DNA of 64,000 nucleotides, taken from contig JBBTRC010000007.1 of the NCBI GenBank assembly GCA_038065355.1, forward strand, positions 42,333-106,332, in the 5' to 3' direction. Both the position numbers and the translations under genes were made by a program. Positions 46,445 through 64,000 of the stretch are shown here, in pieces (position 1 is the first letter of the stretch; each line of letters begins with the position of its first letter). This stretch comes from Patescibacteria group bacterium (GTDB taxonomy: Bacteria; Patescibacteriota; Minisyncoccia; Phycocordibacterales; UBA918). The notes below the pieces were generated by a model. The model was not told the origin of the DNA. It saw nothing but the letters and a program-made list of their open reading frames with translations, and did no database searches.

Positions 46445-46467
46445 ACCAAGTACTATATACTAGATTT

Positions 46468-47643: not shown

Positions 47644-47649
47644 GTACAA

Positions 47650-47687: not shown

Positions 47688-47689
47688 CA

Positions 47690-47965
47690 TCACCACCACT
47701 CGTCGCCGTAAACCCGCACCATTAGAGAGGCTATCCACAAACCAGCGATAAAGCAAGCAAGTATGGAAGCTCCTAGTGCGTACAGCATACGAAAATGATA
47801 GGCAATGACTGTGGGATCTGCGCTGTCTGGTCGCGGAAACTTCTCTATCAAGAGCCAGATTTGTGAGCCAGCGGCGAGCGCACACAAAGCTATGCACGCG
47901 AAGTACGCCAGACGATAGACCCATACGTACTCGAACTCGACCCGACCCCTATCCGCAATGTACAT
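47690..47965 (-). CDS. Hypothetical small membrane protein (2-3 TM)
   Basis: 91 aa, hydrophobic. An overlapping alternative frame 47628..47924 also exists, so the choice is uncertain. Confidence 0.3.
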   Translation of the reverse strand: MYIADRGRVEFEYVWVYRLAYFACIALCALAAGSQIWLLIEKFPRPDSADPTVIAYHFRMLYALGASILACFIAGLWIASLMVRVYGDEWW

Positions 47966-48010
47966 AATTTACCTCCAAAGCTGTCGAATCTTTATCATAT
48001 ATTAAGTGTT

Positions 48011-49261
48011 ATGTCAACGAATTTCTGCTGTGTTAGCATATCGGGTATGAAATCAAGGTTGATAGCCGCGACCATCGTGCTCGTGACATTTTTGGGGGTA
48101 TTGTTTCCAGTAACAGCTGGCTACGCGCAATCGGACGCACCCACTGTCTACATGTTTGGCCGTGACGATTGCGGTTTTTGTAAGAAACAATTTGCCTACT
48201 TGCAAAAAGAAGGCATCAACTACGAATATTTAAATGTAGTGACCGACGATGAGGCGAAGCGGCTTTACGATGAAATCACCGCCAAACACGAAATTTCAAA
48301 AGTGACGCCAGTCACGGTGATTGGTGAACGCGTCCTCGTTGGTTTTAACGGTGCAGAAACAACCGGCCAGGCGATTAAAGAGTCGATTGACGCGGCGCGC
48401 GCCTCGGATATCCGTACGCTCGAAGACCACCTGCTGCGCGCGCCGCGTCAAAGCGTCTCGGACGCTGGCAGCTGTACCGACCTCGAGTGCGAAGCTGGCA
48501 CCGGGCAGTTTGTATTTGAACTCCCGTTTCTTGGTATCGTTGATTTACAAACTTTCTCGCTGTTTACCCTATCAGCGGTGCTCGGTGTGATCGACGGTTT
48601 CAACCCGTGCGCGATGTGGGTCTTGATCACCTTTCTTGTTATTCTCTCGCAAGCTGGCAGCAAACAGAAGATGATTTTCTTGGCGGGAGTTTTCATTCTA
48701 GCCGAAGCCATCATGTACAACCTGATCCTCAATGTCTGGTACAAGACGTGGGACTTTGTCGCGCTTGATCAGTACGTCACTCCGCTCGTTGGCTTTCTGG
48801 CGCTCGGCGGGGGAGCCTTCTTCCTGTGGCGTTGGCACAAAAACAAAGATGCGACTCTGGTCTGCGATATCACCGACTTAGACACGCAAGCAAAAACTAT
48901 CAACAAACTCAAAGCCGTAGTCAGCCAACCGATCACGGTCGCGTCTATTCTGGCAATTCTTCTCATCGCCTTCTCAGTCAACATTATCGAGTTTGCCTGC
49001 TCCATTGGTATTCCACAAGCGTATACAAAGATTCTTGAATTGAACGTACTGTCATTTTTCGAACGACAGTTCTACATTTTTATCTATACGCTTGGCTACA
49101 TGGTCGACGATTTCGTTGTTTTTGGTCTGGCCATTTGGGGTTATTCAAAACTACAAGCGCACGGTGGCAAGTATGCGCAACTTTCACTCCTCATTGGCGG
49201 CATCTTGATGCTGCTTCTTGGCGCGCTTCTCATACTGAGTCCAGACGCGCTGGTGTTGTAA
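48011..49261 (+). CDS. Thioredoxin/glutaredoxin-fold domain fused to CcdA/DsbD-like integral membrane thiol-disulfide transporter domain
   Basis: N-terminal TM, then Trx-like domain with CGFC (YMFGRDDCGFCKKQF). Membrane domain has Cys in TM helices (GFNPCAMW, IEFACSIG) as in the CcdA/DsbD family. Adjacent to exported MsrAB. Start may be the Met at 48047. Confidence 0.5.
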   Translation: MSTNFCCVSISGMKSRLIAATIVLVTFLGVLFPVTAGYAQSDAPTVYMFGRDDCGFCKKQFAYLQKEGINYEYLNVVTDDEAKRLYDEITAKHEISKVTPVTVIGERVLVGFNGAETTGQAIKESIDAARASDIRTLEDHLLRAPRQSVSDAGSCTDLECEAGTGQFVFELPFLGIVDLQTFSLFTLSAVLGVIDGFNPCAMWVLITFLVILSQAGSKQKMIFLAGVFILAEAIMYNLILNVWYKTWDFVALDQYVTPLVGFLALGGGAFFLWRWHKNKDATLVCDITDLDTQAKTINKLKAVVSQPITVASILAILLIAFSVNIIEFACSIGIPQAYTKILELNVLSFFERQFYIFIYTLGYMVDDFVVFGLAIWGYSKLQAHGGKYAQLSLLIGGILMLLLGALLILSPDALVL

Positions 49262-49264
49262 CAA

Positions 49265-49330
49265 AAAAGCCCACCGAAATGCGAACGTAATTCATTTATA
49301 GAAGTTGGTTCTAATTAAGGTGGGCTTTTT
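49265..49330. terminator. Long-range hairpin (12-bp stem AAAAAGCCCACC/GGTGGGCTTTTT, ~42-nt loop), bidirectional terminator-like
   Basis: A-run/T-run embedded in the stem, positioned between convergent genes. Confidence 0.45.
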
Positions 49331-49341
49331 CTAGCCTACCC

Positions 49342-49587
49342 TCAAATTTTCCAAAGTTTGAATCCCGAGTAACTCGAGACAAAAGCGATGACGGGTGACG
49401 CAATTAAGAGGCGCGTCGTAAACACCGTTTCGTCGCTCAAGATGTAGATCCCGTGTTCGGGGTCAATCATGAGGACAAGTGACAAGAACGCAAAGAATGC
49501 GCCAAGCACCAACGCCGGAACTGAGAGTAGCTTGATGATGATTTTCCAAGTCGGAATCACATCACCAGTGCTAGAGATGATGGTCAT
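49342..49587 (-). CDS. Hypothetical small membrane protein
   Basis: 81 aa, two hydrophobic helices. Confidence 0.3.
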   Translation of the reverse strand: MTIISSTGDVIPTWKIIIKLLSVPALVLGAFFAFLSLVLMIDPEHGIYILSDETVFTTRLLIASPVIAFVSSYSGFKLWKI

Positions 49588-49694
49588 TTCTGACCTCCTT
49601 TCAAAGGACTGTTACCAAGTAATTATACACAAATCAAAAATATTGTCAATAGTACTGGTGGGTGCTGGAAATACTATGATACATAAGTATTTAT

Positions 49695-50375
49695 ATGGCC
49701 GTACCATTGCCTGAGTTGCTACTCATAGACAAACCCGCCGGTATCACTTCGATGGATGTTATTCGTCGGCTGCGGCGGTTGACCGGTGTCCGCAAAATGG
49801 GCCACGCGGGCACGCTTGATCCGCTGGCGACTGGACTTATGCTGATTGGTGTCGAAAAGGGCACCAAACGGCTCACTGAACTGGTGAAACTAGATAAAGA
49901 ATATCTGGCCGAAGTACGAATCGGCGAGTCGCGCACGACGGGGGATTTGGAAGGAGACATTGTCGAAACCAAGGAGATGACAGAATTGGAAGAACAGAGC
50001 ATTGCTGACACGCTCTCCACTATGGTCGGTGAGATTGAGTTGCCGGTGTCGGCGTACAGTGCGATTAAAAAAGACGGAGTGCCGATGTACAAAAGAGCTA
50101 GACAGGCGGCAAAACAGGGAGAAATGGTGGATGAATTACCAGTGCGAAAAATGAAAGTGTACGAAGCAGAGTTGTTACGCTATGAAATTGGTGACGGAAG
50201 AGCGGTGGCAACCGTCCGTTTTGCCGTCGGAAGCGGTACGTACATTCGCTCGCTGGCGGAAGAACTCGGTCGTCGCCTGGGGTATCCAGCGACTTTGCAA
50301 AACTTGCGCCGGACGAAGGTGGGGGAGTTTCGTATCGAAGACGCCAAGCAGATTGAAGATTTTAAAAAAGAATAG
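49695..50375 (+). CDS. truB: tRNA pseudouridine(55) synthase TruB (no PUA extension)
   Basis: LLLIDKPAGITSMDVIRRLRRL...GHAGTLDPLATGLMLIGV with catalytic Asp in GTLDP. Confidence 0.9.
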   Translation: MAVPLPELLLIDKPAGITSMDVIRRLRRLTGVRKMGHAGTLDPLATGLMLIGVEKGTKRLTELVKLDKEYLAEVRIGESRTTGDLEGDIVETKEMTELEEQSIADTLSTMVGEIELPVSAYSAIKKDGVPMYKRARQAAKQGEMVDELPVRKMKVYEAELLRYEIGDGRAVATVRFAVGSGTYIRSLAEELGRRLGYPATLQNLRRTKVGEFRIEDAKQIEDFKKE

Positions 50376-50405
50376 CCGCGCGCTGACATACGTCAGGCGC
50401 GCGGC
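50375..50405 (-). terminator. GC hairpin terminator serving minus-strand gene 50412..50702 (possibly bidirectional)
   Basis: GCCGCGCGCTGAC-ATAC-GTCAGGCGCGCGGC, A-run on the plus side. Confidence 0.55.
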
Positions 50406-50411
50406 CGTAAG

Positions 50412-50702
50412 CTATCGTTGACTCGGCGCAACTCGCCGCCGTTGGAACAAAATCGCGGCGGACATGAACGCATCGAGTTGATGTTGTGTCGTTCGGTCGG
50501 TAGCCTTTATGGTCACGGTGCCTTCCTCGTTTGTGACCTCAAGCTTTCCATTAAAGAACGTCTGAAGTGCCGCGAGATGCCGACCTTCCACATCGGCGCC
50601 TCGGGCCGTCCAGATAAAATTCTCGTCTACAGCGGGGTGGTTTTTAACGTTGCTCAAGAGTTGACTCCTTAGATTTGCAAAACGGTTGAAAACCACCACC
50701 AT
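50412..50702 (-). CDS. Hypothetical protein
   Basis: 96-aa ORF with terminator. No recognisable domain. Confidence 0.35.
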   Translation of the reverse strand: MVVVFNRFANLRSQLLSNVKNHPAVDENFIWTARGADVEGRHLAALQTFFNGKLEVTNEEGTVTIKATDRTTQHQLDAFMSAAILFQRRRVAPSQR

Positions 50703-50780
50703 ACACCCACTACATTAAAGCATAAGTCATCATGTTTGTAAAGAAGTAAAGAAAACCGCCGACGATAGTATCGTGGGCGG

Positions 50781-51062
50781 TCAAAGTAGGTTGAGTTGTT
50801 TGGCTTTTTCTTTGCGTCGCTGTCCTCTTTTGTCCGCTTTGGCATGCCTTTCGCGCGCGTAAGTTTTCAATCGAGTACTCAGCTCGTTTGTAAGTGCAGC
50901 CAGCTTGTCGTTTGCCAATCCGTCTATTTGATATGTACTGACGGTCGATGAAAGCGCAAGAAACTCTCGAGCAATTTGCCACGAGTATTTTTCCCAAGAA
51001 TTTGGGAATTTACTACAGTGAGGCAAATATTTAATGAGTCGCTTGAATAGTTCCTCATCCAT
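50781..51062 (-). CDS. Hypothetical protein with basic C-terminal tail
   Basis: 93 aa. 8-nt overlap with the upstream ORF (translational coupling). Overlapping alternative frame 50710..50997 rejected. Confidence 0.3.
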   Translation of the reverse strand: MDEELFKRLIKYLPHCSKFPNSWEKYSWQIAREFLALSSTVSTYQIDGLANDKLAALTNELSTRLKTYARERHAKADKRGQRRKEKAKQLNLL

Positions 51063-51450
51063 CTCGCGCCCCGCGACACTTGATGAATGCGGACAGCTTT
51101 GGCAGCAAAGCCATCACTTCCTTCAAATGCTCTCCTCGTTCTCGAAGATCCGCCAAAGCTTTCCCTTTGTGATCAACTAACGCCCGGCAGGTGGGGTCCC
51201 CGAAGGAACTCACATGAAAGCACGAAGTAGTGCCAAAACCACGTCGCGTCAGCCAGAGTTCGTTACAAACAACATCAAACGACGCAGACCAACGGTCGTC
51301 GTCGCGAAGCTTCTGCCAGCGATTGTTGTTGCGAGCGACAACGCTTTTACGTAGGCGCTCCAATGCTTCTTCGAGCGCAGTCGGTTCACCAAGCTCGTTT
51401 TTTGCGATCAAGGCTCTGTCGACGAAGTCGACTTCAAATAATGTGGCCAT
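51055..51450 (-). CDS. Hypothetical protein (Cys/His-containing)
   Basis: 131 aa, ...TSCFHVSSFGDPTCRALVDHKG... No known motif recognised. Confidence 0.35.
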   Translation of the reverse strand: MATLFEVDFVDRALIAKNELGEPTALEEALERLRKSVVARNNNRWQKLRDDDRWSASFDVVCNELWLTRRGFGTTSCFHVSSFGDPTCRALVDHKGKALADLRERGEHLKEVMALLPKLSAFIKCRGARDG

Positions 51451-51512
51451 TCGAACTCTCCCTATGTTGAAGGTTCACCTTCCGTATTTATACCACAAAT
51501 ACTTAAAAAAGT

Positions 51513-51731
51513 CTACTTGTCCTCCTCTGGCACATTGCCATCTTCTGGAATCCGGCCGTCTGGATCTACTATGTGGTAGTTGGCATCCGTGCCCATACGA
51601 ACGGCTTCATAAGCCACTTGTGTCTCCGACGGCAGGGTCACCTCGTCGATGGACTTTTCTTCAACCCCATTTTCTACGATGGCGTCAGGGTTTTCGGGAG
51701 AGGTTTTCTTTCCAAAAAATTCTTTGAACAT
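51513..51731 (-). CDS. Small acidic hypothetical protein
   Basis: 72 aa, rich in Glu/Asp/Pro. Confidence 0.3.
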   Translation of the reverse strand: MFKEFFGKKTSPENPDAIVENGVEEKSIDEVTLPSETQVAYEAVRMGTDANYHIVDPDGRIPEDGNVPEEDK

Positions 51732-51750
51732 AACGTGTGCTACTTATTAT

Positions 51751-52203
51751 CTAAAATAATGATTCGACGACCGCTTTGACATCGCCGCCGTCAGCTTTGC
51801 CAGCGAGCTCTTTCATGGCTGCGCCGACCAGCATACCCATTTTACTCTTGTCGGTAATGCCAAGCTCGGCCTTTTTTGCTTCGACAATCGGACGGATCTC
51901 TTCCTGGCTCATGAGGGTAGGGAGGTAGCTCTCGAGGACGGCTAATTCGGCTTTTTCTGGATCGGCGAGGTCAGTGCGGCCGGCCGCTTCGTACTGCACA
52001 ATTGACTCCTTTCTTTGTTTGGCAAGTCGTTTAATGACTCCGAGTACTTCTTCGTCTTTCAGTATTTCTTGCGGCGTGCGCTTAGTGGCGACTAATTCAT
52101 TGGTAAAGGCGGTCAGCATGCTACGAACGGTGCGCAACTTCACCTCCTGCTTGGCTTTCATGGCTTCTTTCAGCTCGCCTTTGATGGATTCGTGTAGGGT
52201 CAT
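51751..52203 (-). CDS. GatB/YqeY domain-containing protein
   Basis: Collinear with YqeY: LKEAMKAKQEVKLRTVRSMLTAF...LAKQRKESIVQYEAAGRTDLA...ELGITDKSKMGMLVGAAMK. Confidence 0.8.
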   Translation of the reverse strand: MTLHESIKGELKEAMKAKQEVKLRTVRSMLTAFTNELVATKRTPQEILKDEEVLGVIKRLAKQRKESIVQYEAAGRTDLADPEKAELAVLESYLPTLMSQEEIRPIVEAKKAELGITDKSKMGMLVGAAMKELAGKADGGDVKAVVESLF

Positions 52204-52263
52204 ATAAACGATTTTAACACAAAAACCTCCCGACGTTGTCCGTCGGGAGGCGTTGGTGGTTTG

Positions 52264-53073
52264 TTAGTCCCAACCTAATGCTCGTTCGATTGCCGCGTCA
52301 ACATATCGAACGAGGAAGATGAACATATCGTAGAGGAAGTGTATCAGGATTGCTACCAGTAGCCCGTGCTGAAACATGATCAAGAAAAGGAGCATTCCGA
52401 TGAACCATGAGTTCACAAACCCCAAGAGTCCCTGATAGCGGTGACCGTTTCGAAACATACCGTTTGAAACAATCACCGCACTTCCGACCGCCCAGCCGTA
52501 GCCATTGAACAAGATATGTTCGAGTAGGCCAAGCGTACTTAGGTTTGCAATTGGACCAACAACGCTGGTGTAGAGCCAGCTGTAGATCCCAAAGGTCACG
52601 ATATTAAGAACGTACACCCACGGAACTGCTATAAAGAAGAGAAGCCACCGAAAGATGATCTCCTCAAAGACCCCGGCCATTAAACTAAGAGCAAAGCCCT
52701 TCGAGAGAAACTGTTCAGCATCACGGTTGAGACGCGCTTCATTTCTAGTCAGGATCGAGACAATCGTTGTCAACCCGGCTCCCCAGGCAAAAAGCGGCCA
52801 CGCTTGAATGATCGGTTCAAAACTCAACTTTGGTATCACCCAAAACTCAAATAGTCGAAACGGAATTATGTTTGGTGCGAGCAGTTCGACGAACGAAACA
52901 ACACCAAACAAAACAATCGTTTCAATAGCCAGCAACACAGTGCGCTCGTGGACATCCACTCGGTCGAGGATTACTTTTGGTAAATACCGTTCGAGTGCGT
53001 GCGCAACGCGTTCTTGGGCGCCGCGATAGTGACGAGGATCGTTTGTACAGTCATCAGAAAAAGACGTTTGCAC
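52264..53073 (-). CDS. CPBP family intramembrane metalloprotease (CAAX protease-like)
   Basis: EEIIFRWLLF (EExxxR motif 1), later conserved His motifs, polytopic. Confidence 0.6.
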   Translation of the reverse strand: MQTSFSDDCTNDPRHYRGAQERVAHALERYLPKVILDRVDVHERTVLLAIETIVLFGVVSFVELLAPNIIPFRLFEFWVIPKLSFEPIIQAWPLFAWGAGLTTIVSILTRNEARLNRDAEQFLSKGFALSLMAGVFEEIIFRWLLFFIAVPWVYVLNIVTFGIYSWLYTSVVGPIANLSTLGLLEHILFNGYGWAVGSAVIVSNGMFRNGHRYQGLLGFVNSWFIGMLLFLIMFQHGLLVAILIHFLYDMFIFLVRYVDAAIERALGWD

Positions 53074-53189
53074 AGATGCACTCCCTTCGTATCAGGTGTG
53101 GTTTTTCTACAAAAATAATAACAATTAAAATGACTTTGTCAATATCTTAAAAAAGGGATGTACAAGGTACATGATATGATAGTCACACT

Positions 53190-54272
53190 ATGGATCCAGT
53201 GATGATTTTGATTGGGTTGGCGATTGTTATTTTGCTTGTCTTAGTCTACGGGCTGTTTTTCCGGAAGCCACCAGCGCCCGACAACCAAGGCCTCATCCTT
53301 ATGCAGCAACGCCTGGAGGAGCTGACCCGCACCATGGACAGTCGCTTGGGTGAGACCAACAAAGCCATGCAGGAGGGGGCACGTCTACAATTTCGCGAAA
53401 GCAAGGAGTTGATTCAGGAGATCAACAAAGAAATGAATGAGCAACTCCGTAATGTCGTGAAGGGTGTGACAGAAGTGCAAGAAAGTTCCAAGCAAGTTTT
53501 CAGCGTGGCCGAGCAGTTGCAGAATCTTGAAAAGGTTTTAAAACACCAGAAGCAACGAGGGAATTTGGGAGAGGCCAGCCTACAGTTGGCGCTTGAGAAC
53601 ATGCTACCGGCCGGTGCCTACCGGATACAGTACCAATTTCCAGGTGGCGAAACTGTCGATGCAGTCATTGAAACGAAAGACGGCTTGATTCCGGTTGATG
53701 CGAAGTTTTCGCTCGACAATTATCGCCGTCTCGTCGACGCGCAGACCGACTCCGAGCGAGAACTTCTAGAGAAAGAATTCAAAAACGACCTCAAAAAACG
53801 CATCGACGAGACGGCGAAATACATTCGTCCGAAAGACGGCACCCTGCCGTTTGCTTTTATGTACATTCCGGCCGAGGCGATTTACTACGATCTGTTGGTA
53901 AACGAAGTTGGTTCAATCAAGGTCAATACGCGCTCGCTCATCGACTACGCATATAAAGACAAGAACGTGATCATTGTCTCACCGACGACCTTCACTGCCT
54001 ATCTGCAGTCTGTCTTGTACGGTTTTCGGGCGTTTAAGATTGAAGAGAGCGCCAAGCAAATCGGGAAGCAAGTCGAACTCCTCGGCCGACATCTCCAGGC
54101 CTACGACGAATATTTTAAAAAGGTCGGCAATTCGCTCGGCACCACCGTCAACCACTACAATGCTGCGCAAAAAGAACTCGGAAAAATAGACAAAGATGTG
54201 GCGAAGATAGCGGGTGAGGGAATGGAGATAGAAATGCTGGCGCTGGAGAAACCGGATAGGACAGAGGAATAG
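53190..54272 (+). CDS. rmuC: DNA recombination protein RmuC
   Basis: N-terminal TM, long coiled-coil, C-terminal RmuC nuclease-like domain (...DGLIPVDAKFSLDNYRR...FAFMYIPAEAIYYD...). Confidence 0.8.
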   Translation: MDPVMILIGLAIVILLVLVYGLFFRKPPAPDNQGLILMQQRLEELTRTMDSRLGETNKAMQEGARLQFRESKELIQEINKEMNEQLRNVVKGVTEVQESSKQVFSVAEQLQNLEKVLKHQKQRGNLGEASLQLALENMLPAGAYRIQYQFPGGETVDAVIETKDGLIPVDAKFSLDNYRRLVDAQTDSERELLEKEFKNDLKKRIDETAKYIRPKDGTLPFAFMYIPAEAIYYDLLVNEVGSIKVNTRSLIDYAYKDKNVIIVSPTTFTAYLQSVLYGFRAFKIEESAKQIGKQVELLGRHLQAYDEYFKKVGNSLGTTVNHYNAAQKELGKIDKDVAKIAGEGMEIEMLALEKPDRTEE

Positions 54273-54340
54273 AAAATATAGAATAGAGGACAGAAAATAG
54301 GGAAGAGAAAAGAGAGTACGGAATAGAAAGTAAGTAAAAG
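54243..54340 (+). repeat. Polypurine low-complexity tract with degenerate GGAATAGAAA-type repeats
   Basis: About 95 nt that are over 90% purine on the plus strand, between the rmuC stop and its terminator. Confidence 0.6.
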
Positions 54341-54378
54341 AAAACCGCGCCAATGCAAGTGCATGGCGCGGCGGTTTC
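54341..54378 (+). terminator. Rho-independent terminator after rmuC
   Basis: CCGCGCCAATGCA/TGCATGGCGCGG hairpin then CGGTTTCT. Confidence 0.6.
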
Positions 54379-54606
54379 TGATGCGCGACTTATTTAGTTC
54401 CGAGCACCAAAAACAAAGGAATGAAGCAAGCAATTAAGAAGAAAATCGCCGAGACAACTTTTCGGTTGATCCCGAAGAAGTTGGCAATCGGAACTTCGAT
54501 CGTCGCGTTCAGTCTTTCAAAATATGCTCGCATGGTGACTCCTTTTAAGTTCCATCTATCATTATACACGAAAAATGCAAAAAGTCAAGTATGCGCTGGA
54601 ACAGCC

Positions 54607-54634
54607 TTGCAAAAAGGCTCGATTCTTGTATACT
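54607..54634 (+). promoter_or_regulatory. Sigma-70-like promoter TTGCAA-16-TATACT upstream of rplU
   Basis: Near-consensus hexamers 10 nt before the rplU ATG region. Confidence 0.45.
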
Positions 54635-54644
54635 CTCGGTTCAT

Positions 54645-54974
54645 ATGGCAACAAAAACTAATACCCAATCTTTTGCCGTGATCTCAACCGGCGGCAAGCA
54701 ATATGTCGTCCACGAAGGCGATGTGCTTAAGGTTGAGCTCCTCGGCGACCATAAAGAGGGCGACAAAATCACCTTTGACAGCGTGCTGATGACTGACGAT
54801 GGCGCAAAGGCTAAAATCGGCGCACCGACAACTGGCGGCAAAGTCACCGCGACCTATCTCGGCGAGAAAAAGGGCAAGAAGCTCACCATCATCCGCTACA
54901 AAGCCAAGAGCAACCGCGACCGCCGCCTCGGCCATCGCCAACACTACGCAGAAATAAAGATTGAGAAGATTTAG
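54645..54974 (+). CDS. rplU: 50S ribosomal protein L21
   Basis: MATKTNTQSFAVISTGGKQYVVHEGDVLKVE...GKKLTIIRYKAKSNRDRRLGHRQHYAEIKIEKI. Confidence 0.9.
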   Translation: MATKTNTQSFAVISTGGKQYVVHEGDVLKVELLGDHKEGDKITFDSVLMTDDGAKAKIGAPTTGGKVTATYLGEKKGKKLTIIRYKAKSNRDRRLGHRQHYAEIKIEKI

Positions 54975-54980
54975 TAAAAA

Positions 54981-55045
54981 TTCCCCGAAGACCGGGGAAT
55001 TTTTAAAAGCCGGTGAACCTGAGAAGGTTCACCGGCGCGTTTTTG
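54981..55045 (+). terminator. Tandem hairpin terminators after rplU
   Basis: TTCCCCG-AAGAC-CGGGGAA+TTTTT, then GCCGGTGAACCT-GAGAA-GGTTCACCGGC+GCGTTTTT. Confidence 0.7.
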
Positions 55046-55316
55046 GCAGGTCTTTCTCCATCACTACCAAACTGCGACTACGTGGCAGGGGAGTGAGCGC
55101 CTGCCACGCGAGTATGTGCTCATAGGTGTGGCGGGCGGTTCGGGGAAACTTATCCAGAAGTTCAACGTAGTACACATGGCAGGTGGTGAGAAAATACGTC
55201 GGTTCGCCTGCCTGCTGTTTTTTAAAACGGAGGTATTCAAAAAGTTCCTGCAAGGTGAACGAAGCCTCGATGCCATCTCTGTCGACGACAATGGTGTAGG
55301 TGCCATCAATCTTCAT
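55029..55316 (-). CDS. Hypothetical protein
   Basis: 95 aa. The 3' end lies inside the second rplU terminator hairpin, so doubtful. Confidence 0.25.
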   Translation of the reverse strand: MKIDGTYTIVVDRDGIEASFTLQELFEYLRFKKQQAGEPTYFLTTCHVYYVELLDKFPRTARHTYEHILAWQALTPLPRSRSLVVMEKDLPKTRR

Positions 55317-55644
55317 TAATGAACCTCCTTTCCTCCCTTACCCTACAAAAAGATGCGTCCATACGCAATTTGACAATGAGTATTTGAAATGTATAATATC
55401 GAGAGTTGAGTTTTGTTGCGTCTTTCAGTGTTATCAAAAACCACAAAGAGGGAGAACACGATGTTGGAGAATAATCCCGAAACATACGCTGACACACTCG
55501 AAGGTCGTCTGGTCGACGAAAAGATCAGTCCACGTCGCGAGCCGGTTCGTTATGATCATGACACGACGGTCGACGAGGACACACTGTACGACGAAAGACG
55601 TTGACGATAGGCGGTCTCGCTTTGCGAGACCGCCACAACATTAT

Positions 55645-56259
55645 TTACGCGCGATTTTTCAGCGCGTTTTTTATTGTCTCAGCGTCAGCGTACTCGAGCT
55701 CGCTGCCGGTTGAAAGTCCGCGGCCCAGGTGGGAGATTTTTCCGCCAGTGTTTTTTAGTATCGGTGCAACAATTGACTCGACAAACCGAGCGGTGTTTTC
55801 GCCATCGGGGTTAATTGAAAAGCCAAGTATTACTTCCTGCAAATTGTCCTTGGCTCGTGCCTCTACTGTGGCCTTGAGCGCACCGCCACGCAGTTTTTGC
55901 GAGTCGACCGAGTTTAGAAGTGGCACGGTACCGCCGAGTACAAAGTACAACCCGTCGTACACTCCAGCTCGTTCGATGGCCTGGATATCTGAATCGCGCT
56001 CGACGACCAGGAGTCGCGCGTGGTTACGGCTTGACAAGGTGCAAATTGAGCACAGCCGTTCTTCCGTGGTTGTTGAAAAAAAGCGATGGCAGCTCTGACA
56101 CTCGACGACCGTTGATTGGATGTTGGTGATGAGTTTGGCGAGTTCGGCGATGTCGGCCGGGTTCAGAGTGAGTACGTGGAAAGCAAACCGTTTGGCCTGG
56201 CGTGCGCCAACACCCGGGAATTTTTCAAAGAGGGTAATGAGTTTGTCTAAATCGGACAT
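55645..56259 (-). CDS. recR: Recombination protein RecR
   Basis: HhH FPGVGARQAKRFAFHVL, C4 zinc finger CQSCHRF...CSIC, Toprim domain. Confidence 0.9.
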   Translation of the reverse strand: MSDLDKLITLFEKFPGVGARQAKRFAFHVLTLNPADIAELAKLITNIQSTVVECQSCHRFFSTTTEERLCSICTLSSRNHARLLVVERDSDIQAIERAGVYDGLYFVLGGTVPLLNSVDSQKLRGGALKATVEARAKDNLQEVILGFSINPDGENTARFVESIVAPILKNTGGKISHLGRGLSTGSELEYADAETIKNALKNRA

Positions 56260-56369
56260 ACGAGAAAGTGTATCATTGTTTGGTGTTCTGCCGTCCAGCG
56301 ATTTGGCTCGGGGAAAAGAGCCAAATCGGGACGTAAATTCACAATAGTCGCTTCCGCTCGTTTGTTCAT

Positions 56370-57746
56370 TTAAAAATCCTCACCGCCTCCAGCAGCGGCA
56401 TGCTGGGTATCGAGATTGAGGAAGCGGACGTGCTTGTCGTCGAAGTAGAGTTCAGCCTTGCCGACCGGGCCATTGCGGTGCTTTTCAACCAGAATTTCCG
56501 CGATATTCGGCCGTTCGGATTCTTTATCTTTGTTCATTTTGTCTTCGCGATGAATAAACATCACCACGTCAGCATCTTGCTCGATAGAGCCAGAGTCGCG
56601 AAGGTCGGAGAGACGTGGCTTGCCGCCGCGTTGTTCGACTGCTCGCGAGAGCTGTGAAATTGCCAACACTGGTATTTCAAGCTCGCGCGCGAGGATTTTG
56701 AGTGAGCGAGAAATCTCGGTCACTTGTTGCACCATACTGTCGCTGCTCTTCGTCAGAGTGGGGGACATAAGCTGGAGGTAGTCGACAATCAGCATGTCGA
56801 GCCCGTATTCGTTCTTGAGCCGCCTGGCGGCCGAACGCATCTTCACAATGTTGAGTGCCGCCTCATCGATGATGTGAATGGGCGCCTTATGGAGTTTGGT
56901 CATGGCGGCTTGGAGCGCTTCGTACTCATGGTCGTTGGAGAGGCGGCCAGTGCGTAGTTTCCAGGAGTCCACACCCGCTTCGGCCGCCAGCATGCGATCG
57001 ACAAGCTGCTGATCACTCATTTCGAGCGAAAAGATACCAACCGAAGCGTTGTATTTAAGCGCGGCGTTTCTCGCGATATCAAGCGCAAAGGTCGTCTTAC
57101 CCATAGAAGGCCGCGCTGCAATGATGATTAAGTCGGATTTCTGAAAACCAGCCAGCAAGTTGTCGATCGCGGTGTAGCCGGAGGGAACGCCGCGTTGAAT
57201 GTGTTGGTTCTCGCTCAAATGTTCAAAGCGTTCCCAGGCTTCTTGGAGAGCGCTTCCGATGGTGCGGAATTTTTGTGCGCTCGGCGCTTGGGTAGCCTGG
57301 AAGATTTTTTTCTCGGCTTGGTCAAGCGCTTCGTCGACGCTCTCCGGATCGGAGTAGCCGATCTCGGCAATGTCGTCGGCCGCATGAATGAGGCCACGTA
57401 AAGTCGCCTTGGCCTGCACTTGGTCGGCGTAGTACGAAGCGTTGCCGGCGGCGGGGACAGTCTCGATGAGCTCGGTCACGTAAGCCGCGCCGCCGACACG
57501 CTCCAGCTGTGACATTTCCTTGAGCTTCGTCACGACCGACACGAGATCGATCGGGTCGCCCTTGGAAAACAATTTCTGAATGGCGTCGTAGATCTGGCGG
57601 TGTTTGTCAGCGTAAAAGCTCTCTGGGAATACGGTCACCGATACATCGTGCATCACATCCGGCTTTAGGATGATGGCTCCGAGGAGCGCCTTTTCGGCGT
57701 CGACGTTATGCGGTGGGTTGCGGAGCGAACGGTTGGTGTCGGCCAT
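56370..57746 (-). CDS. dnaB: Replicative DNA helicase DnaB
   Basis: N-terminal PPHNVDAEKALLGAIIL, Walker A GARPSMGKTTFAL, RecA-fold C-terminal domain. Confidence 0.9.
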   Translation of the reverse strand: MADTNRSLRNPPHNVDAEKALLGAIILKPDVMHDVSVTVFPESFYADKHRQIYDAIQKLFSKGDPIDLVSVVTKLKEMSQLERVGGAAYVTELIETVPAAGNASYYADQVQAKATLRGLIHAADDIAEIGYSDPESVDEALDQAEKKIFQATQAPSAQKFRTIGSALQEAWERFEHLSENQHIQRGVPSGYTAIDNLLAGFQKSDLIIIAARPSMGKTTFALDIARNAALKYNASVGIFSLEMSDQQLVDRMLAAEAGVDSWKLRTGRLSNDHEYEALQAAMTKLHKAPIHIIDEAALNIVKMRSAARRLKNEYGLDMLIVDYLQLMSPTLTKSSDSMVQQVTEISRSLKILARELEIPVLAISQLSRAVEQRGGKPRLSDLRDSGSIEQDADVVMFIHREDKMNKDKESERPNIAEILVEKHRNGPVGKAELYFDDKHVRFLNLDTQHAAAGGGEDF

Positions 57747-57882
57747 AGGTAAGACCTAGTGTAGCAAATTTATCAGACCCTTGTTTTTGGGCCGTTTCGA
57801 ACAAAATAGGGGATTACCTGTGAATATTGACATTTTAGTAATTTCGTGTATAATAAAAGAGAAACCAAGAAAGGTTCTTTGA

Positions 57883-58116
57883 ATGAGCAGATTGGGTGTT
57901 CAAGAAATACAAGAAATCGAAGAGTCAGCGAAAAGCTCTGCCGCCGGGACGAAACTGACGTTCAATGCGATATTGGGCATGATTATGCTCGCGGCACTGG
58001 CCCCTGGTCTCATCCGCCTATTTTTTACGGACGCCGGACACACTCTCGCTGAAACCTCTGAGACCATGGTGTTTTTCGTCGCAGCGGCGACGTTGAAATA
58101 CATCAGAAAAGGTTGA
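57883..58116 (+). CDS. Hypothetical small membrane protein
   Basis: 77 aa, two hydrophobic segments, followed by a strong terminator. Confidence 0.35.
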   Translation: MSRLGVQEIQEIEESAKSSAAGTKLTFNAILGMIMLAALAPGLIRLFFTDAGHTLAETSETMVFFVAAATLKYIRKG

Positions 58117-58133
58117 GGCGGCAAACAGTCTCT

Positions 58134-58172
58134 AAGCCGCAGCGGAAATTCATTTCCGCTGCGGTATTTTTA
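58134..58172 (+). terminator. Rho-independent terminator
   Basis: 13-bp stem CCGCAGCGGAAAT/ATTTCCGCTGCGG then TATTTTTATT. Confidence 0.75.
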
Positions 58173-58191
58173 TTAAACAATTTTTGTTGCA

Positions 58192-58300
58192 CCACCACCT
58201 TCCATCACACTCAGAGAGTAGTGACTATGGCTGGGTGGGTTTGGCTGGGGCAGCCAAGGAGCGTGCGATTCGAGTGTGATGGAAGGTGGTGGATTTTTAC
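58192..58300 (+). repeat. 21-bp perfect inverted repeat (arms 58192-58212 and 58272-58292) enclosing a 59-nt loop, followed by ATTTTTAC
   Basis: CCACCACCTTCCATCACACTC ... GAGTGTGATGGAAGGTGGTGG. Unusually long perfect stem immediately after another terminator. Confidence 0.85.
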
Positions 58301-58308
58301 TCCACTAT

Positions 58309-58415
58309 TGTCACCTTTGGGCAGTGAGCAGTGTCTTCAAGCTGGTAGCCTTTGAGTTTTATCGCGTCGCGCAGTGTATCAGCCTCAAGCCAATTGCAGG
58401 CGATACTCCGGGACT
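58309..58415 (-). pseudogene. Diverged duplicate of the cysS 3' end (C-terminal ~35 codons), gene fragment
   Basis: Minus-strand translation ...NWLEADTLRDAIKLKGYQLEDTAHCPKVT matches the CysS C-terminus ...NWIEADTLRDAIKLKGYQLEDTPHGPKVTKAE (61593..). DNA about 78% identical with no indels. Confidence 0.75.
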
Positions 58416-58514
58416 TATACACCGTACTGGTCGTAGAGCGCGTTGTTTTCTATTTGTAAACGATATAATGGAGGAGAAGCTTTTTAATATTTACGTAACT
58501 ACTAAAACAATCGT

Positions 58515-58880
58515 ATGGGAAAGCCGTTGATTATGATGATGATCTTGATGCTTATCGCGCTATTTTTTGCCGGGCAGGGCGTGTACATGCACCACAAGGT
58601 GGCAATAGAAGAAGCGACGTTTCACGCGTTGCAACAGGATTACTTTATTCTTTCAAAAGCGGAGCGCGAGGCGGCACCGACTGGTTCAGAGCTCAACCAG
58701 CGACTGGTCGAGATTCAAAATTATCCATCAACTCTGCTTGAGCTTAAGCTCGTCGGAGTAGGGAAGATTCTGACCGGTATCTTCGTGTTGCTATTCGGCA
58801 TTTTGATCGCGCTTATCATGATGCCAGTTCGCCTTGGTAACCGCGTTGGTAACATTATTAAAACTCAGCAAAGCTCATAA
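58515..58880 (+). CDS. Hypothetical membrane protein (N- and C-terminal TM helices, coiled-coil middle)
   Basis: 121-aa ORF. GTG/ATG start after an AT-rich region. No recognisable domain. Confidence 0.4.
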   Translation: MGKPLIMMMILMLIALFFAGQGVYMHHKVAIEEATFHALQQDYFILSKAEREAAPTGSELNQRLVEIQNYPSTLLELKLVGVGKILTGIFVLLFGILIALIMMPVRLGNRVGNIIKTQQSS

Positions 58881-58888
58881 ATATTTCT

Positions 58889-60007
58889 GTGGCCGCGAAT
58901 ACGTTTGACCGGATTATTATCGGAGCCGGTTTCGCTGGCTTGTCGGCCGCGTACCACTTCAGTCTACTCGGTGAACGGGTAGTGGTGCTCGACCGTGGTT
59001 CAGGAAAGGACAACGCCAGCTTCGCTTCAACAGCGGAAATGAACCATGACCCGGATGTCAATTGGGACAAAGTTATTGCTGTGCACGGACTCGAGGCCGC
59101 CAAAGACATTTGGCAATTGACCGAAAAAGCCATCGTGCTGCTGACAGCTTTTGCACACAGAGAGGGTAGCGAGCACTTTGAAGCCAAGCGCGTACCCGCG
59201 CACATGTTCAGCACGACCGCAGAGGGGAGAAGCGCGATTGAACACAAATACGGACGCTATCGGGCGCTTGGCGCAAAAGTGACGCTTGAATCTAATCCTC
59301 ACCTGCTCCATCCATCTTTCAAAGCCGCGCTCACGCTCGTGGGGGATGGGCGTACCAACAATCAGGCGATTTTGCGCACGCTTCGGCGAGCGGTAAAACA
59401 AAATGGCGGGATGGTTTATCACCAGAGGGAAGTGGAGCACATTGAGCCAGGGTCTCCGGTTCATGTGCATACCAGCCACGGCGAGGTGCTCTCTGCCCGG
59501 CGAGTCTTGGTGGCGACTGGTGATCAGTCAATTCCGAAGTTGAAGCGTTTTCCGATTGAGCGACAGCGCACGTACGTTGTTCGCTATGAGTCGCCGCGCT
59601 TAGCCGAGTTGTACCGCACCGCTATGATGTGGGATGTCGCCGAACCATTTCACTACATTCGCTCCTTTGCAGGGCGGCAACTGTGGGTTGGCGGCGAAGA
59701 TGCGCGGGCGGACTCGACGACAAAACACACCGAGTCACAAGCGCTCAAACGACTCCATGAATTTTCCAAGGAAGTGCTACGGCTTGATCGTTCATACACA
59801 CCAACCGGCCATTGGAGCGGGGTCTTTTTCCCGACCGCTCGTTCTCTGCCATACATTATTCCAGCTGATGAAAGCGGTATTGGGTACAGTATTGGTTTTG
59901 GCGGTTCGGGGTTACTGATGAGTTTTGTATCCGGCTACTTGCAAGCCAAGTGGGCGAAAAAACAAGAATCGCATTATCAGCATTTGTTCGCAGATGATCG
60001 AAGATGA
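58889..60007 (+). CDS. FAD-dependent oxidoreductase (DAO family, glycine/D-amino-acid oxidase-like)
   Basis: N-terminal Rossmann motif DRIIIGAGFAGLSAAYHF...VVVLDRG. 372 aa. Confidence 0.75.
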   Translation: MAANTFDRIIIGAGFAGLSAAYHFSLLGERVVVLDRGSGKDNASFASTAEMNHDPDVNWDKVIAVHGLEAAKDIWQLTEKAIVLLTAFAHREGSEHFEAKRVPAHMFSTTAEGRSAIEHKYGRYRALGAKVTLESNPHLLHPSFKAALTLVGDGRTNNQAILRTLRRAVKQNGGMVYHQREVEHIEPGSPVHVHTSHGEVLSARRVLVATGDQSIPKLKRFPIERQRTYVVRYESPRLAELYRTAMMWDVAEPFHYIRSFAGRQLWVGGEDARADSTTKHTESQALKRLHEFSKEVLRLDRSYTPTGHWSGVFFPTARSLPYIIPADESGIGYSIGFGGSGLLMSFVSGYLQAKWAKKQESHYQHLFADDRR

Positions 60008-60106
60008 TCGAAGATGAAGAACACATGAAAGAAAAGCGGTACTACGTCGTAGTAACGAAAGGAGTAAACCGGTTTTTGTTCTTGCATCTTAAAGGAGGAG
60101 ATCTCT

Positions 60107-60547
60107 GTGACAGAACTTTCGTCTGGCCAGCCAGGTGAACGTTTCGTGCTACCGCACGATGAGATGGCGTTTCGTCGAGTCTACCGCGAGCTACTTGCTC
60201 GCGAAGCTATTACCACGGTCTTTCGGCCGGGCAAACGTCAGTGCGGCGACTGGCGCGGTTACTGTCCTGGTGACATTGTGACTGCAAAAGTGATTGCGGA
60301 GGTGGGTTTGGATCGCGCGCGCGTAGCGCCGATTTTCTTACCCGAACCGCGCAAAGTGATTCGAATCGATGAAGTTAAACTCGTTCGAATCGGTGACTTG
60401 GAGGCGCATGATTTCGTAAACGCAACTCCGGATGTGACATCAAAAGCCCAACTACAATGGCATCTTGGTCTTGTATACAACTTGGACAAAGAGACGCTTA
60501 GCGATGACACGCCTATCACAAAGATTACATTCAGCTACCAGCGCTAA
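60107..60547 (+). CDS. Hypothetical protein, possible ASCH/PUA-like beta-barrel
   Basis: GTG start 7 nt after SD AAAGGAGGAG. 146 aa. Weak resemblance to ASCH. Confidence 0.4.
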   Translation: MTELSSGQPGERFVLPHDEMAFRRVYRELLAREAITTVFRPGKRQCGDWRGYCPGDIVTAKVIAEVGLDRARVAPIFLPEPRKVIRIDEVKLVRIGDLEAHDFVNATPDVTSKAQLQWHLGLVYNLDKETLSDDTPITKITFSYQR

Positions 60548-60563
60548 CAAAGGAAAGGTCTCT

Positions 60564-61538
60564 ATGACACAACTATATCGCCTCGCAACACTGCCGCATG
60601 GCAACCCGAACTCGCTTGAAGATTTTGAAACGTACGACCTGACGCCGATCGACCACGAGTATCCCGGTCGCTTTGCGAAAAAAGCCAACCACGTGTTTCG
60701 TTCACTCGACCTACCGATTGGTTTTGCCATGGTGGTGGCTGACCCGAAGGAGGCAGATGCTGTCTATGATAATTTTCGTAAAGATCCAAAATATCGCGGT
60801 GGCGGAACCGGTTCTGGTTTTAAAAATAAAGCACCGGCCTTTCTCGACGTTTTGGATCCACTCGCACGTCGGATCGATGCCGTCAATGTGGTGGTCAAAA
60901 AGGATGGTGCACTCCACGGGTACAACACCGACGGTACGGGCTTTGTGTTCGGACTCAAGGAATTGTTCGCTTGGGAAAAAGACATACACTCTCTTATGGG
61001 TGCAAAAGTGTTGCTCGTTGGTGCCGGTGGCACTGCTGACGCTATTGCCTTTGCGCTCGCCGGTGAGCTTGTACAACTTGATATTGTCAACCGAACAGCT
61101 GAAAAAGCAGTCAAGCTGGCAGAACGCATCACCCACACGCTAGGTATACGAGCTACGGGTTACGGTGAAGACGCGCTTGCCAGGCTAGTGCCCGACGCAG
61201 ACATTATCATCAATGCCTCGACAAAAAGCGCCGAAGGTCCGCTCAAGGACTTTGCCGCCCTCTCATCCGCCGACGGCGATCTTGAGCACAATCTTCGCGA
61301 TAGTGAGCGAGTGATTGCGACAGCCAAACGCTCGGCGGTCGTGTGCGACGTGAATCTCCGCGATAGCGTGTCGCCCACGTTGTCTCTGGCCAAGCAGTAC
61401 GGGCTTCTGACACAGGACGGCCGAGCCATGAACTTCCACCAAGCGGTGGAGGCGCTCTGGCTCATTCATGCCGATGACTTTAGGACTCAGGAAGCAGATA
61501 AACGCACCGTTGCTCGACTCATTGAAGCGGTCTCATGA
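60564..61538 (+). CDS. aroE: Shikimate/quinate 5-dehydrogenase family protein (AroE-like)
   Basis: GYNTDGTGFV (NTDxxG substrate motif), VLLVGAGGTADAIAFAL (NAD(P) Rossmann), IVNRT and IIINAS motifs. Aligns along the length of E. coli AroE. Confidence 0.7.
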   Translation: MTQLYRLATLPHGNPNSLEDFETYDLTPIDHEYPGRFAKKANHVFRSLDLPIGFAMVVADPKEADAVYDNFRKDPKYRGGGTGSGFKNKAPAFLDVLDPLARRIDAVNVVVKKDGALHGYNTDGTGFVFGLKELFAWEKDIHSLMGAKVLLVGAGGTADAIAFALAGELVQLDIVNRTAEKAVKLAERITHTLGIRATGYGEDALARLVPDADIIINASTKSAEGPLKDFAALSSADGDLEHNLRDSERVIATAKRSAVVCDVNLRDSVSPTLSLAKQYGLLTQDGRAMNFHQAVEALWLIHADDFRTQEADKRTVARLIEAVS

Positions 61539-61560
61539 CTTCGTAAGTTAAAAAATATAG

Positions 61561-61593
61561 AAAACCGACGCCACACTGTGGCGTCGGTTTTTT
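61561..61593. terminator. Bidirectional terminator between AroE-like gene and cysS
   Basis: AAAACCGACGCC-ACACTGT-GGCGTCGGTTTTTT. Confidence 0.75.
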
Positions 61594-63005
61594 CATTCAG
61601 CTTTTGTCACTTTTGGGCCGTGGGGAGTGTCCTCAAGCTGGTAGCCCTTCAGCTTGATGGCATCGCGCAGAGTATCAGCTTCGATCCAGTTGCGGGCGAT
61701 GCGGGTGGCTTCGCGGCGGTCAACGAGCTCTTGTATATCGGCTGGCAGTTCATCTGCCGCGACTACGCCGAGTGAACGCCGGCCGTCTTCTTGGTTTTCA
61801 GATAATCCGATATCGAGCACGTCATCCATGGCCATGAGGGTGCCGCATTTTGTGTGGTTATCGAGAGTGTTGTCGCGGATCATTTCCCACATGCATGCAA
61901 TGGCGCCGGGAGTGTCAAGATCGTTTGCGAGCATAAGGTCAAATTTTTCGAGATAGCGGGGTTCGGGGGCGCTGGCTTTTTGTTTAAATTCTTCGTACAT
62001 GTAGCGCTTCAGGCGGTAGAGCGCCTGCTTCGCTCCTTGGAGCGCGTCCCAGGAGAAGTTGATAGGGGAGCGGTAGTGGGCGGTGAGGAGCCAGTAGCGG
62101 TAGTCGTCACCGGAGAATCCCCGGTCCATGAGGTGGCGCAAGGTAATGCCATTGCCGAGCGACTTGGCGATTTTGGCGTTGTCGATAGTGATGAAAGCAT
62201 TGTGGAGCCAATACTTGGCAAAGTGTTTTCCGGTAGCGGCTTCACTTTGTGCAATCTCGGCGTTGTGATGAACCGGAATATGGTCGATGCCTCCGGTGTG
62301 GATGTCGATCTCTTTACCGAGCGTAGCCATCGCCATCGCTGAACATTCAATGTGCCAGCCGGGGAAGCCTTTACCCCAGCGGCTGTCCCAGCCAAGCTCA
62401 CCCTTTTTCCAGACGGCAAAGTCAGCCGGATGCCGCTTTTCGCTGTTGACCTCAACGCGCGCGCCGCTTTTAAGTTTTTGTACGTCGATTTTGCCTAAGC
62501 GCCCGTAGGTCGGGAATTTGGAAATGTCGAAATAAACACCGTCTCCCGTTTCGTAAGTGAAGCCCTTCTCATCGAGGGTCTTTATAAGTGCGATCTGTTT
62601 TTTAACGTACTCGCTGGCTCTGGCCCAAGTGGTCGGCGGCAAGATACGCAGTGCCTCCATATCGGCGAAGAACGCCTGAATGTACGTGTCGGAAAGCTGG
62701 CGCATCGCTTCGAGCGAAACCGGCAGCCCTTCTCGCATGAGACCTTTCATCATTTTGTCTTCGCCGGCATCACCATCGTCGGTAAGGTGGCCAAAGTCGG
62801 TGAGGTTGATGGTGTGTTTTACCAGATATCCACTTCGTACTAGAACGCGCTTTAAGATGTCGGCAAATACATAGGAGCGCAAGTTGCCGATGTGCGCGTA
62901 GTCGTAGACGGTCGGGCCGCAGCTGTACATGGTCACCTGCGGGCTACGGAGCGGCGTAAATACTTCAAGCTTGCCCGTTTCGGTATTAAAGAGTCGTATG
63001 TCCAT
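61593..63005 (-). CDS. cysS: Cysteine--tRNA ligase
   Basis: Start MDIRLFNT. HIGH-like motif HIGNLRSY, zinc-binding Cys, KMSKS-like KIAKSLGN, anticodon-binding C-terminus. ORF maximum 63047. Confidence 0.9.
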   Translation of the reverse strand: MDIRLFNTETGKLEVFTPLRSPQVTMYSCGPTVYDYAHIGNLRSYVFADILKRVLVRSGYLVKHTINLTDFGHLTDDGDAGEDKMMKGLMREGLPVSLEAMRQLSDTYIQAFFADMEALRILPPTTWARASEYVKKQIALIKTLDEKGFTYETGDGVYFDISKFPTYGRLGKIDVQKLKSGARVEVNSEKRHPADFAVWKKGELGWDSRWGKGFPGWHIECSAMAMATLGKEIDIHTGGIDHIPVHHNAEIAQSEAATGKHFAKYWLHNAFITIDNAKIAKSLGNGITLRHLMDRGFSGDDYRYWLLTAHYRSPINFSWDALQGAKQALYRLKRYMYEEFKQKASAPEPRYLEKFDLMLANDLDTPGAIACMWEMIRDNTLDNHTKCGTLMAMDDVLDIGLSENQEDGRRSLGVVAADELPADIQELVDRREATRIARNWIEADTLRDAIKLKGYQLEDTPHGPKVTKAE

Positions 63006-63142
63006 GGCGACGGGAGGCGACGGTTTTTTGAAGAGATTTTGCAACATGGACTTCTAGTGTAGCAAATAACAGGCAAAACATCCTATCCCCCACTACAAAC
63101 ACCATTTTTTGGCGACTCTACGCCAGTGTGAGATAATGCCAC

Positions 63143-64000
63143 TATGTCGATTGAACATAATCCCAAAGAGAAAAAAAATAGTGCCATATTGGGGTATGGT
63201 TTGGCACTCGTTTTGGCCGCCGCCGCCTTCGTATCTGGTGTGCAGTTTGGCCAGCGCGAAATTCCTCTCAACGATCAGACGGCCGGTCTCTACAATTTAT
63301 TTTTTGGCCAAGAGGAGACGGTAGACCCATCAGACCGTCCAGACCTCTCCAAACTCTGGGAGGTGTGGGATTTGCTTGAAGAAAAATATGTGACGGCGAG
63401 TTCAACTGCCGGCGTTACAAAAGAGGAACGCATTGAGGGCGCTATCGAGGGTCTGGTTGACACCTACGGAGATCCCTATACGGTGTACTTACCTCCCGAG
63501 GAGGCGGCTCACTTCAATGAGGACATCTCCGGCAACTTCAGCGGTGTTGGTATGGAGGTGGGGCTACGCGACGGTCTTGTGACCATCATTGCGCCACTCC
63601 CAGAGACACCAGCCGCCAAGGCTGGCCTGCTCGCTGGCGACGTCATTGTCAAAATTGACGAGACTACCACCGAAGACATGCGCATTGACGAAGCGGTGCG
63701 GTTGATACGTGGAGAAAAGGGAACTGTTGTCATTTTGACCATTTTCCGCGAAGGCGAAGATGAATTTCTCACCATACCGGTGACCCGCGACACGATTGAA
63801 ATTCCCACCGTCAAAACCGAAAAAGTCGACGATACCTTTATCATCGCGCTCTACACTTTCAACGCCCTTTCTGAGCAAAAAATGAAAGATGCGCTTACCG
63901 ACTACCTACAAAGCGGCTCAACCAAACTCATTCTCGATCTGCGCGGTAACCCTGGCGGTTTTTTGCAAAGCGCCGTGGCTATCGGGAGCTATTTTCTGCC
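63143..64000 (+). CDS. S41 family C-terminal processing peptidase (Ctp/Prc-like), 5' partial running off the window end
   Basis: ATG at 63143, open to the window end (286 codons). N-terminal TM, PDZ domain (GMEVGLRDGLVTIIAPLPETPAAKAGLLAGDVIVKID), LDLRGNPGG motif. Not in the ORF track because no stop lies in the window. Confidence 0.8.

Follow-up and report, generated by a model that had tools for sequence, protein, structure and literature searches.

The stretch of DNA analysed here, 64,000 nucleotides long and referred to below as the window, belongs to a metagenome-derived Patescibacteria genome; contig names of matching assemblies place the organism in Hainich groundwater well H41, and identical proteins are deposited at NCBI as 'Patescibacteria group bacterium' with locus tags AAB388_. 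It carries an intact minus-strand cysS gene (61593..63047, 484 aa; an exact look-up of this protein gave no hit, and its annotated form has 470 aa) and, on the same strand, dnaB (56370..57746). The cysS stop (61593) and the dnaB start (57746) are separated by 3,846 nt. Read from cysS to dnaB, this gap contains a bidirectional intrinsic terminator, four plus-strand genes, 110 nt of unique sequence, a remnant of a second cysS 3' end, a hairpin element and a unit built around a small gene, orf77. A 3.3-kb stretch of inserted genes thus separates the intact cysS from the remnant, and it follows from the order of features that the remnant lies on the dnaB side, where relatives have the 3' end of cysS.

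The four genes of the inserted block encode a membrane protein (orf121, 58515..58880), an FAD-dependent oxidoreductase of the Pfam DAO family (58889..60007), a protein without a family match (orf146, 60107..60547) and a shikimate-dehydrogenase-like protein (60564..61538, 324 aa from its likely start), the last being identical to NCBI AAB388_01545 (Patescibacteria group bacterium). The 110 nt upstream of orf121 (58405..58514) form the end of the block, and the terminator (61561..61591, 15-nt arms) lies between the shikimate-dehydrogenase-like gene and the resident cysS. Few close homologues of the shikimate-dehydrogenase-like protein were found, the best non-self match being 66% identical. In other genomes, orf146 always precedes a shikimate-dehydrogenase-like gene, and we observed the orf146 gene directly upstream of, or overlapping, a distinct gene of this kind on several contigs (L112, L113 and L114-L116). 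More distant homologues of the pair likewise occur together in otherwise unrelated contexts, so that the two genes look like a conserved two-gene module. On the dnaB side, orf77 (57883..58116, plus strand) is predicted to encode a small membrane protein and has a sigma-70-like consensus promoter (57827-57854) and a canonical intrinsic terminator (58136..58165, plus strand; 13-bp stem and T-run); it matches no family, and the related loci contain no homologue of it. Searches of Pfam, NCBIfam and PHROGs revealed no recombinase among the four block proteins or orf77, and the base composition of the insert shows no anomaly.

The remnant (58294..58404, minus strand) comprises 35 sense codons, a stop codon (58297-58299) and 3 nt beyond it, and forms a direct repeat with the resident cysS tail (61590..61700, minus strand). 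The two segments, which bound positions 58405-61589, lie in the same orientation and match at 89 of 111 nt (80%) without gaps (blastn, E 6e-26); a repeat search recovered the same pair. This significant alignment bears out the preliminary description, which had proposed a diverged copy of the cysS 3' end with about 78% identity over about 110 nt and no indels. Translated from the minus strand, the remnant ends in ...SIACNWLEADTLRDAIKLKGYQLEDTAHCPKVTIVE and the resident CysS in ...RIARNWIEADTLRDAIKLKGYQLEDTPHGPKVTKAE. Homology between the tails begins sharply at ATCGCC (58404 / 61700) and extends 3 nt past the stop codon, while the sequences upstream of ATCGCC are unrelated. The longest identical run between the tails measures 14 nt (GGCTACCAGCTTGA) and lies inside a conserved coding stretch. 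The remnant is non-functional, since it has no plausible start codon or ribosome-binding site and since conserved positions of CysS are altered in it (R->C, G->C and K->I). Elsewhere in the window, a 106-nt direct repeat (20573-20678 versus 21077-21182, 94% identical) is an internal repeat (KAPEPKLTPIPVATPVSPPPR...) of a proline-rich ORF of 570 aa (20202-21914).

This arrangement was compared with that of related loci. The resident CysS is 73-79% identical to its best homologues among the matches listed, and those of them that carry a taxon name are labelled Kaiserbacteria, Paceibacteria or Parcubacteria. A search of genome contigs with the full-length protein gave only matches of at most 48% identity among those listed; these were dominated by the universal motif WHIECSAM, and the NCBI relatives with 73-79% identity were absent among them. 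The set used for synteny was assembled from loci found with the C-terminal 107 aa of CysS in metagenome contigs, together with the closest CysS and DnaB homologues. In these relatives, an S41 (ctpB-like) peptidase gene on the opposite strand is followed by cysS, dnaB directly downstream and recR, and then by rplU and rmuC on the opposite strand. This order holds in all contigs that reach far enough, namely 22 metagenome contigs plus L128 and L129/L130 (about 24). The spacer between cysS and dnaB in these Kaiserbacteria-like contigs ranges from 66 to about 780 nt, and its longer versions contain small membrane-protein ORFs on the opposite strand. None of the roughly 24 contigs contains a homologue of any of the four block genes, and a second cysS tail is absent from all of the approximately 110 loci that carry one. 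The window has retained the S41 peptidase neighbour upstream of cysS, and its 3,846-nt gap stands against empty sites of 66-780 nt in relatives. The recombination breakpoint between dnaB and the gene block that the preliminary description had suspected is supported, as the related contigs have cysS adjoining dnaB without the block.

As a separate observation on these two genes, an identical 14-mer (ATTTGCTACACTAG in gene sense) precedes both start codons: in the window it lies at 57756-57769, 9 nt before the ATG of dnaB, and at 63054-63067, 6 nt before that of cysS. The extended -10-like motif TGCTACACT within it suggests a shared promoter type that would give rise to leaderless or very short-leader mRNAs of dnaB and cysS.

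A related block was found at the same site in a second lineage, represented by a 3.6-kb Logan contig (SRR33375159; L112). Its gene order is dnaB (90% identical to that of the window at the amino acid level), a homologue of orf121 (79%), a homologue of orf146 (54%), a shikimate-dehydrogenase-like gene, which encodes the 66% match mentioned above, and a cysS tail. The contig lacks the FAD oxidoreductase gene, orf77, the hairpin and the remnant, and no repeats flank its block. The orf121 homologue starts 167 nt from dnaB, and BLAST detected no similarity between this spacer and the end of the insert in the window (58405-58513). Block and remnant are separable, given that L112 combines a related block between cysS and dnaB with the absence of a remnant, and the presence of the block in a second lineage means that members of this group have gained genes in the cysS-dnaB spacer more than once. 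The remnant must have arisen after the window and L112 split, because the dnaB genes of the two are only 76% identical at the nucleotide level and a remnant of that age would be unrecognisable. The cysS tail of L112 resembles the remnant (76% identity) slightly more than the resident tail (71%), the two comparisons differing by five sites. Although DnaB of L112 ranks first among the relatives of the window protein, its lead is marginal (89.9% versus 89.3%) and does not establish L112 as a sister lineage.

The substitutions that distinguish the two tails of the window indicate how they diverged. Across the 35 shared sense codons, Nei-Gojobori counts gave 23.8 synonymous and 81.2 nonsynonymous sites with 15 and 6 differences, respectively, which corresponds to pS 0.63, pN 0.074 and a dN/dS of 0.06. 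The differences are thus nearly all synonymous, which means that the tails diverged as working genes in separate lineages. Simulations of in-situ copying followed by neutral decay predicted about 15-23 replacement differences at the observed synonymous divergence, and the probability of 6 or fewer was at most 0.004. Both tails therefore belonged to functioning cysS genes of different lineages during most of their divergence.

We further polarised the replacements with 31 relatives. In the remnant alone, an R that 29 of the 31 relatives have and a G that all 31 have are both replaced by C, and a third change of the remnant, K->I, falls within the near-invariant VTK of the tail; in the resident tail, no invariant residue is changed. 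About three neutral replacements at some 81 replacement sites imply that selection on the remnant ceased only a short time ago on the scale of the two alleles' age. Its decay since the event is slight, and the event happened recently in comparison with the divergence of the alleles. The two lineages were fairly close relatives, because the tails are 82% identical to each other in their 96-nt core, where either is at most 77% identical to any relative, and because they have the rare KGYQLED in common. Judged from these sequences, donor and recipient were related lineages whose silent sites had nonetheless diverged as in separate species; gene conversion may have contributed. The idea of a decayed second cysS, possibly acquired horizontally, accordingly stands in part: the remnant comes from a second, diverged cysS allele and horizontal exchange was involved, but its decay is slight.

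We consider the 111-nt segment to be a dead and displaced cysS 3' end that probably stems from recombination between two related Kaiserbacteria-like lineages. The scar itself would most plausibly have formed by a joining that was homologous at one end and illegitimate at the other, a combination defined as homology-facilitated illegitimate recombination (PMC3240628). Starting from the ancestral gene order, as preserved in the relatives (ctpB-like peptidase, cysS, dnaB, recR), DNA of a related lineage would have entered by homologous recombination within a conserved flanking gene, either cysS or dnaB, and its other end would have been joined illegitimately at 58404/58405. Two polarities can be envisaged. 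In one, the block would have been imported together with some or all of cysS, with the anchor in cysS, and the remnant would be the native tail. In the other, the block would already have been resident, as the L112 arrangement illustrates, and a segment with the cysS tail, the hairpin, orf77 and the 5' part of dnaB would have been imported through a dnaB anchor, making the remnant the foreign tail. Both polarities fit the data equally. In a sliding-window comparison of CysS with 119 homologues, the nearest neighbour remained constant and no mosaic signal appeared, which can be attributed to the star-like family tree, in which synonymous sites are saturated.

A route in two steps would end in the same anatomy and the same synonymous-biased divergence, and we regard it as possible but doubtful. 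A full cysS would have been inserted together with the block, so that two cysS genes existed transiently, and a later deletion would have spared just the final 111 nt of one of them; the end of that deletion could account for the sharp boundary at 58404/58405. This route requires two events instead of one, and no relative with two cysS copies exists among the roughly 110 loci.

Site-specific integration at the cysS 3' end is a weaker candidate still, and we think it unlikely. An island carrying a mimic of the cysS tail would have integrated there, the 111-nt repeats would represent attL and attR, and the integrase would since have been lost or act in trans. Direct repeats of a target 3' end that bound a cargo and leave the gene intact are the classic anatomy of such islands, relatives have empty sites, the 14-nt identical run could be a crossover core, and the module of orf146 and the shikimate-dehydrogenase-like gene occurs in unrelated contexts. 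However, none of the four block genes encodes a recombinase recognised by Pfam, NCBIfam or PHROGs, the viral and proviral contigs searched yielded no relative of the cysS tail, and L112 carries related cargo at the same site without repeats. Moreover, a second tail was present in none of the roughly 110 loci, so that cysS does not look like a recurrent attachment site. Together, these observations argue against an integrase-mediated insertion.

An old duplication of the cysS tail within the genome, followed by neutral decay of the extra copy, had been suggested in the preliminary description and now appears very improbable. In its favour, each tail matches the other better than it matches any relative over the 96-nt core. 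The low dN/dS and the 6 replacements in place of the predicted 15-23 reject a neutral in-situ duplicate (P<0.005), the remnant has no indels and has kept its stop codon, and a decay limited to about three replacements at conserved residues speaks against a great age. A collapsed or chimeric repeat in this metagenome-derived assembly can be dismissed almost entirely, given that the 80%-identical repeat is too diverged for collapse and that three other assemblies from the same groundwater population, made from replicate samples or with a different assembler, reproduce the region: Logan ERR3858138 (L085; 100% identical over 57303-58903), ENA ERZ1292628 (L084; 99.9% over 61486-64000) and a 31-kb contig of ENA ERZ1292633 (L117; 99.994% over 46370-64000) that spans the whole region including both repeats. 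The misassembly about which the preliminary description had cautioned is thereby in practice excluded.

The hairpin element adjoining the remnant requires a separate explanation. It measures 101 nt (58192..58292), starts 4 nt past the remnant stop codon and consists of perfect 21-bp arms (58192-58212 / 58272-58292; 21 of 21 positions complementary) around a 59-nt interior that pairs further. The inverted repeat reported previously was thus confirmed in its dimensions, 59-nt loop included. It is unique in the window, none of 100 shuffles gave 2 matches, and its fold has z-scores of -6.5 to -8.5 against shuffled controls. A homologue of the left arm and interior (58199-58271; 75% identity over 73 nt, E 4e-8) exists at another locus in a relative (contig L107, 752-824). 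There it occupies intergenic DNA, with the rpmA terminator on one side and, on the other, the stop codon of a convergent gene for a peptidyl-prolyl isomerase. In the L107 copy, the outer stem is present with a sequence that differs from that of the window, and the interior is conserved. The two genomes agree in the placement of the element, which closely follows the canonical terminator of a plus-strand gene and lies 4-10 nt beyond the stop codon that ends a minus-strand gene. They also agree in folding, the plus strand being more stable than the minus strand by about 11-12.5 kcal/mol in each copy. Loosely placed 6-mers, the only candidates for a target-site duplication, bracket the two hairpins: ATTTTT 6 nt before and directly after that of the window (region 58186-58298), and TATAAA 8 nt before and directly after that of L107 (region 741-846). 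The window and 0.75 Mb of related loci were searched with nhmmer and with a covariance model built from the two copies, and no further copy came to light. Rfam 15 gave no match at gathering score and no credible one at E<=10.

These features contradict the earlier view that the inverted repeat flanks the duplication. It lies on one side only and is hence neither a flank nor a by-product of the duplication; it is a separate, conserved and discrete hairpin element, independent of the cysS-tail duplication. The claim that terminator architecture had been duplicated along with the tail holds for the stop codon, the A-run and the hairpin position, which recur in both tails, but the hairpins themselves are not homologous. 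In relatives, the terminator hairpin of cysS occupies the same position as the 101-nt element. A U-tract (AUUUUUAC) is found on the plus strand of the element only, with none on the cysS-sense strand. The most likely readings are a 3'-end or insulator structure between convergent genes and a low-copy palindromic mobile element; tentatively, the element would probably serve convergent genes as a 3'-end structure, terminator or insulator placed between them.

Several other identities for the hairpin were considered and rejected. As an intrinsic terminator it would be atypical, with a 21-bp stem and a 59-nt interior in place of a short, GC-rich stem and a loop of 3-8 nt, and the consensus scan did not call it. 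The best sub-threshold Rfam match, XIST_intron, is spurious (23.5 bits versus 70). An SRP RNA, with which the element shares GCAGCCAAGG, was discarded because there is no GNRA-capped helix 8 and no Rfam score. A micro-ORF (MAGWVWL... versus MFGWIWL...) was likewise abandoned, as its differences are spread about equally over codon positions and the L107 version reaches a stop after 13 codons. Ten viral-contig matches to a 17-base pattern from the hairpin scored poorly with the HMM of the element and represent chance seeds. The window also contains other long inverted repeats that are unrelated to the cysS-side hairpin in sequence. One is intergenic (13029-13106; 25-nt arms, 28-nt spacer), and in the other (29430-29554; 24-nt arms, 77-nt spacer) the left arm overlaps the last 15 nt of an ORF (27726-29444).

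There is a slim chance that the locus holds something beyond this, either because the hairpin is an undescribed element of Kaiserbacteria-like genomes (a mobile palindrome or a structured RNA at convergent junctions) or because orf121, orf146 and the shikimate-dehydrogenase-like gene form a spreading cassette. If so, the long perfect palindrome could have provoked the DNA break that was repaired into the scar, and the cassette would use the cysS and dnaB flanks as landing pads between lineages.

Taken as a whole, the preliminary view of a rearrangement scar with a second, diverged cysS tail is supported by the repeat, the synteny and the substitution pattern. The scar is of a known kind, a displaced gene end left behind by the acquisition of foreign DNA, and reflects an ordinary event that reveals no new mechanism. 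It is of value as a clean trace, one that can be dated, of how related lineages of uncultured, ultra-small bacteria in groundwater exchange DNA; here a housekeeping synthetase gene was severed 111 nt from its end, yet an intact copy was preserved. The substitution pattern discriminates between a sequence that diverged elsewhere and arrived recently and one that was duplicated in place and decayed slowly. The locus documents inter-lineage recombination at a conserved junction in Patescibacteria, one at which accessory metabolic genes can be inserted, as at least two lineages show, with the neighbouring conserved hairpin as the only unexplained item.

The individual features have parallels in several known systems. 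Correia, ERIC and RUP are small palindromic intergenic elements, and the hairpin resembles them in its length of about 100 nt, its terminal inverted repeats, its intergenic location at gene ends and the existence of a related copy at another locus elsewhere. It differs in its scarcity, with one copy in 64 kb and only the L107 copy in 0.75 Mb of related loci, in the lack of a clear target-site duplication, and in that the arms differ between copies while the interior is conserved.

Genomic islands can target the 3' end of a gene for a tRNA, tmRNA or protein, and their att sites then duplicate that gene end. As in such islands, the target gene here is intact by virtue of a supplied tail, and the displaced tail, an imperfect direct repeat, marks the opposite end of the cargo. 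Unlike them, the locus has no integrase, no longer identity core and no recurrence at the site in relatives, and the cargo of L112 is free of repeats. Genes for T6SS effectors, Rhs and CdiA proteins are accompanied by displaced 'orphan' 3' ends downstream; these genes encode polymorphic toxins, for which displacement is recurrent and adaptive. The scar shares with them the combination of a new 3' end, cargo and a displaced old 3' end, as well as recombination via conserved upstream sequence, whereas it concerns a housekeeping aminoacyl-tRNA synthetase and a single event.

A further parallel is provided by the products of homology-facilitated illegitimate recombination, which are known from naturally transformable Acinetobacter, Streptococcus pneumoniae and Pseudomonas stutzeri. 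The present case differs from these in that it is inferred from the natural metagenome genome of an uncultured member of the Patescibacteria. In both, foreign DNA absent from relatives adjoins a conserved anchor gene, an abrupt junction contrasts with a presumably homologous one that leaves no visible trace, and a truncated fragment of the recipient or donor is left behind. The window shows the expected hallmarks of such products, namely a duplicate derived from another lineage (dN/dS 0.06 and pS 0.63, with in-situ decay rejected at P<0.005) and an insert at a conserved anchor that is absent from relatives (3,846 nt versus 66-780 nt).
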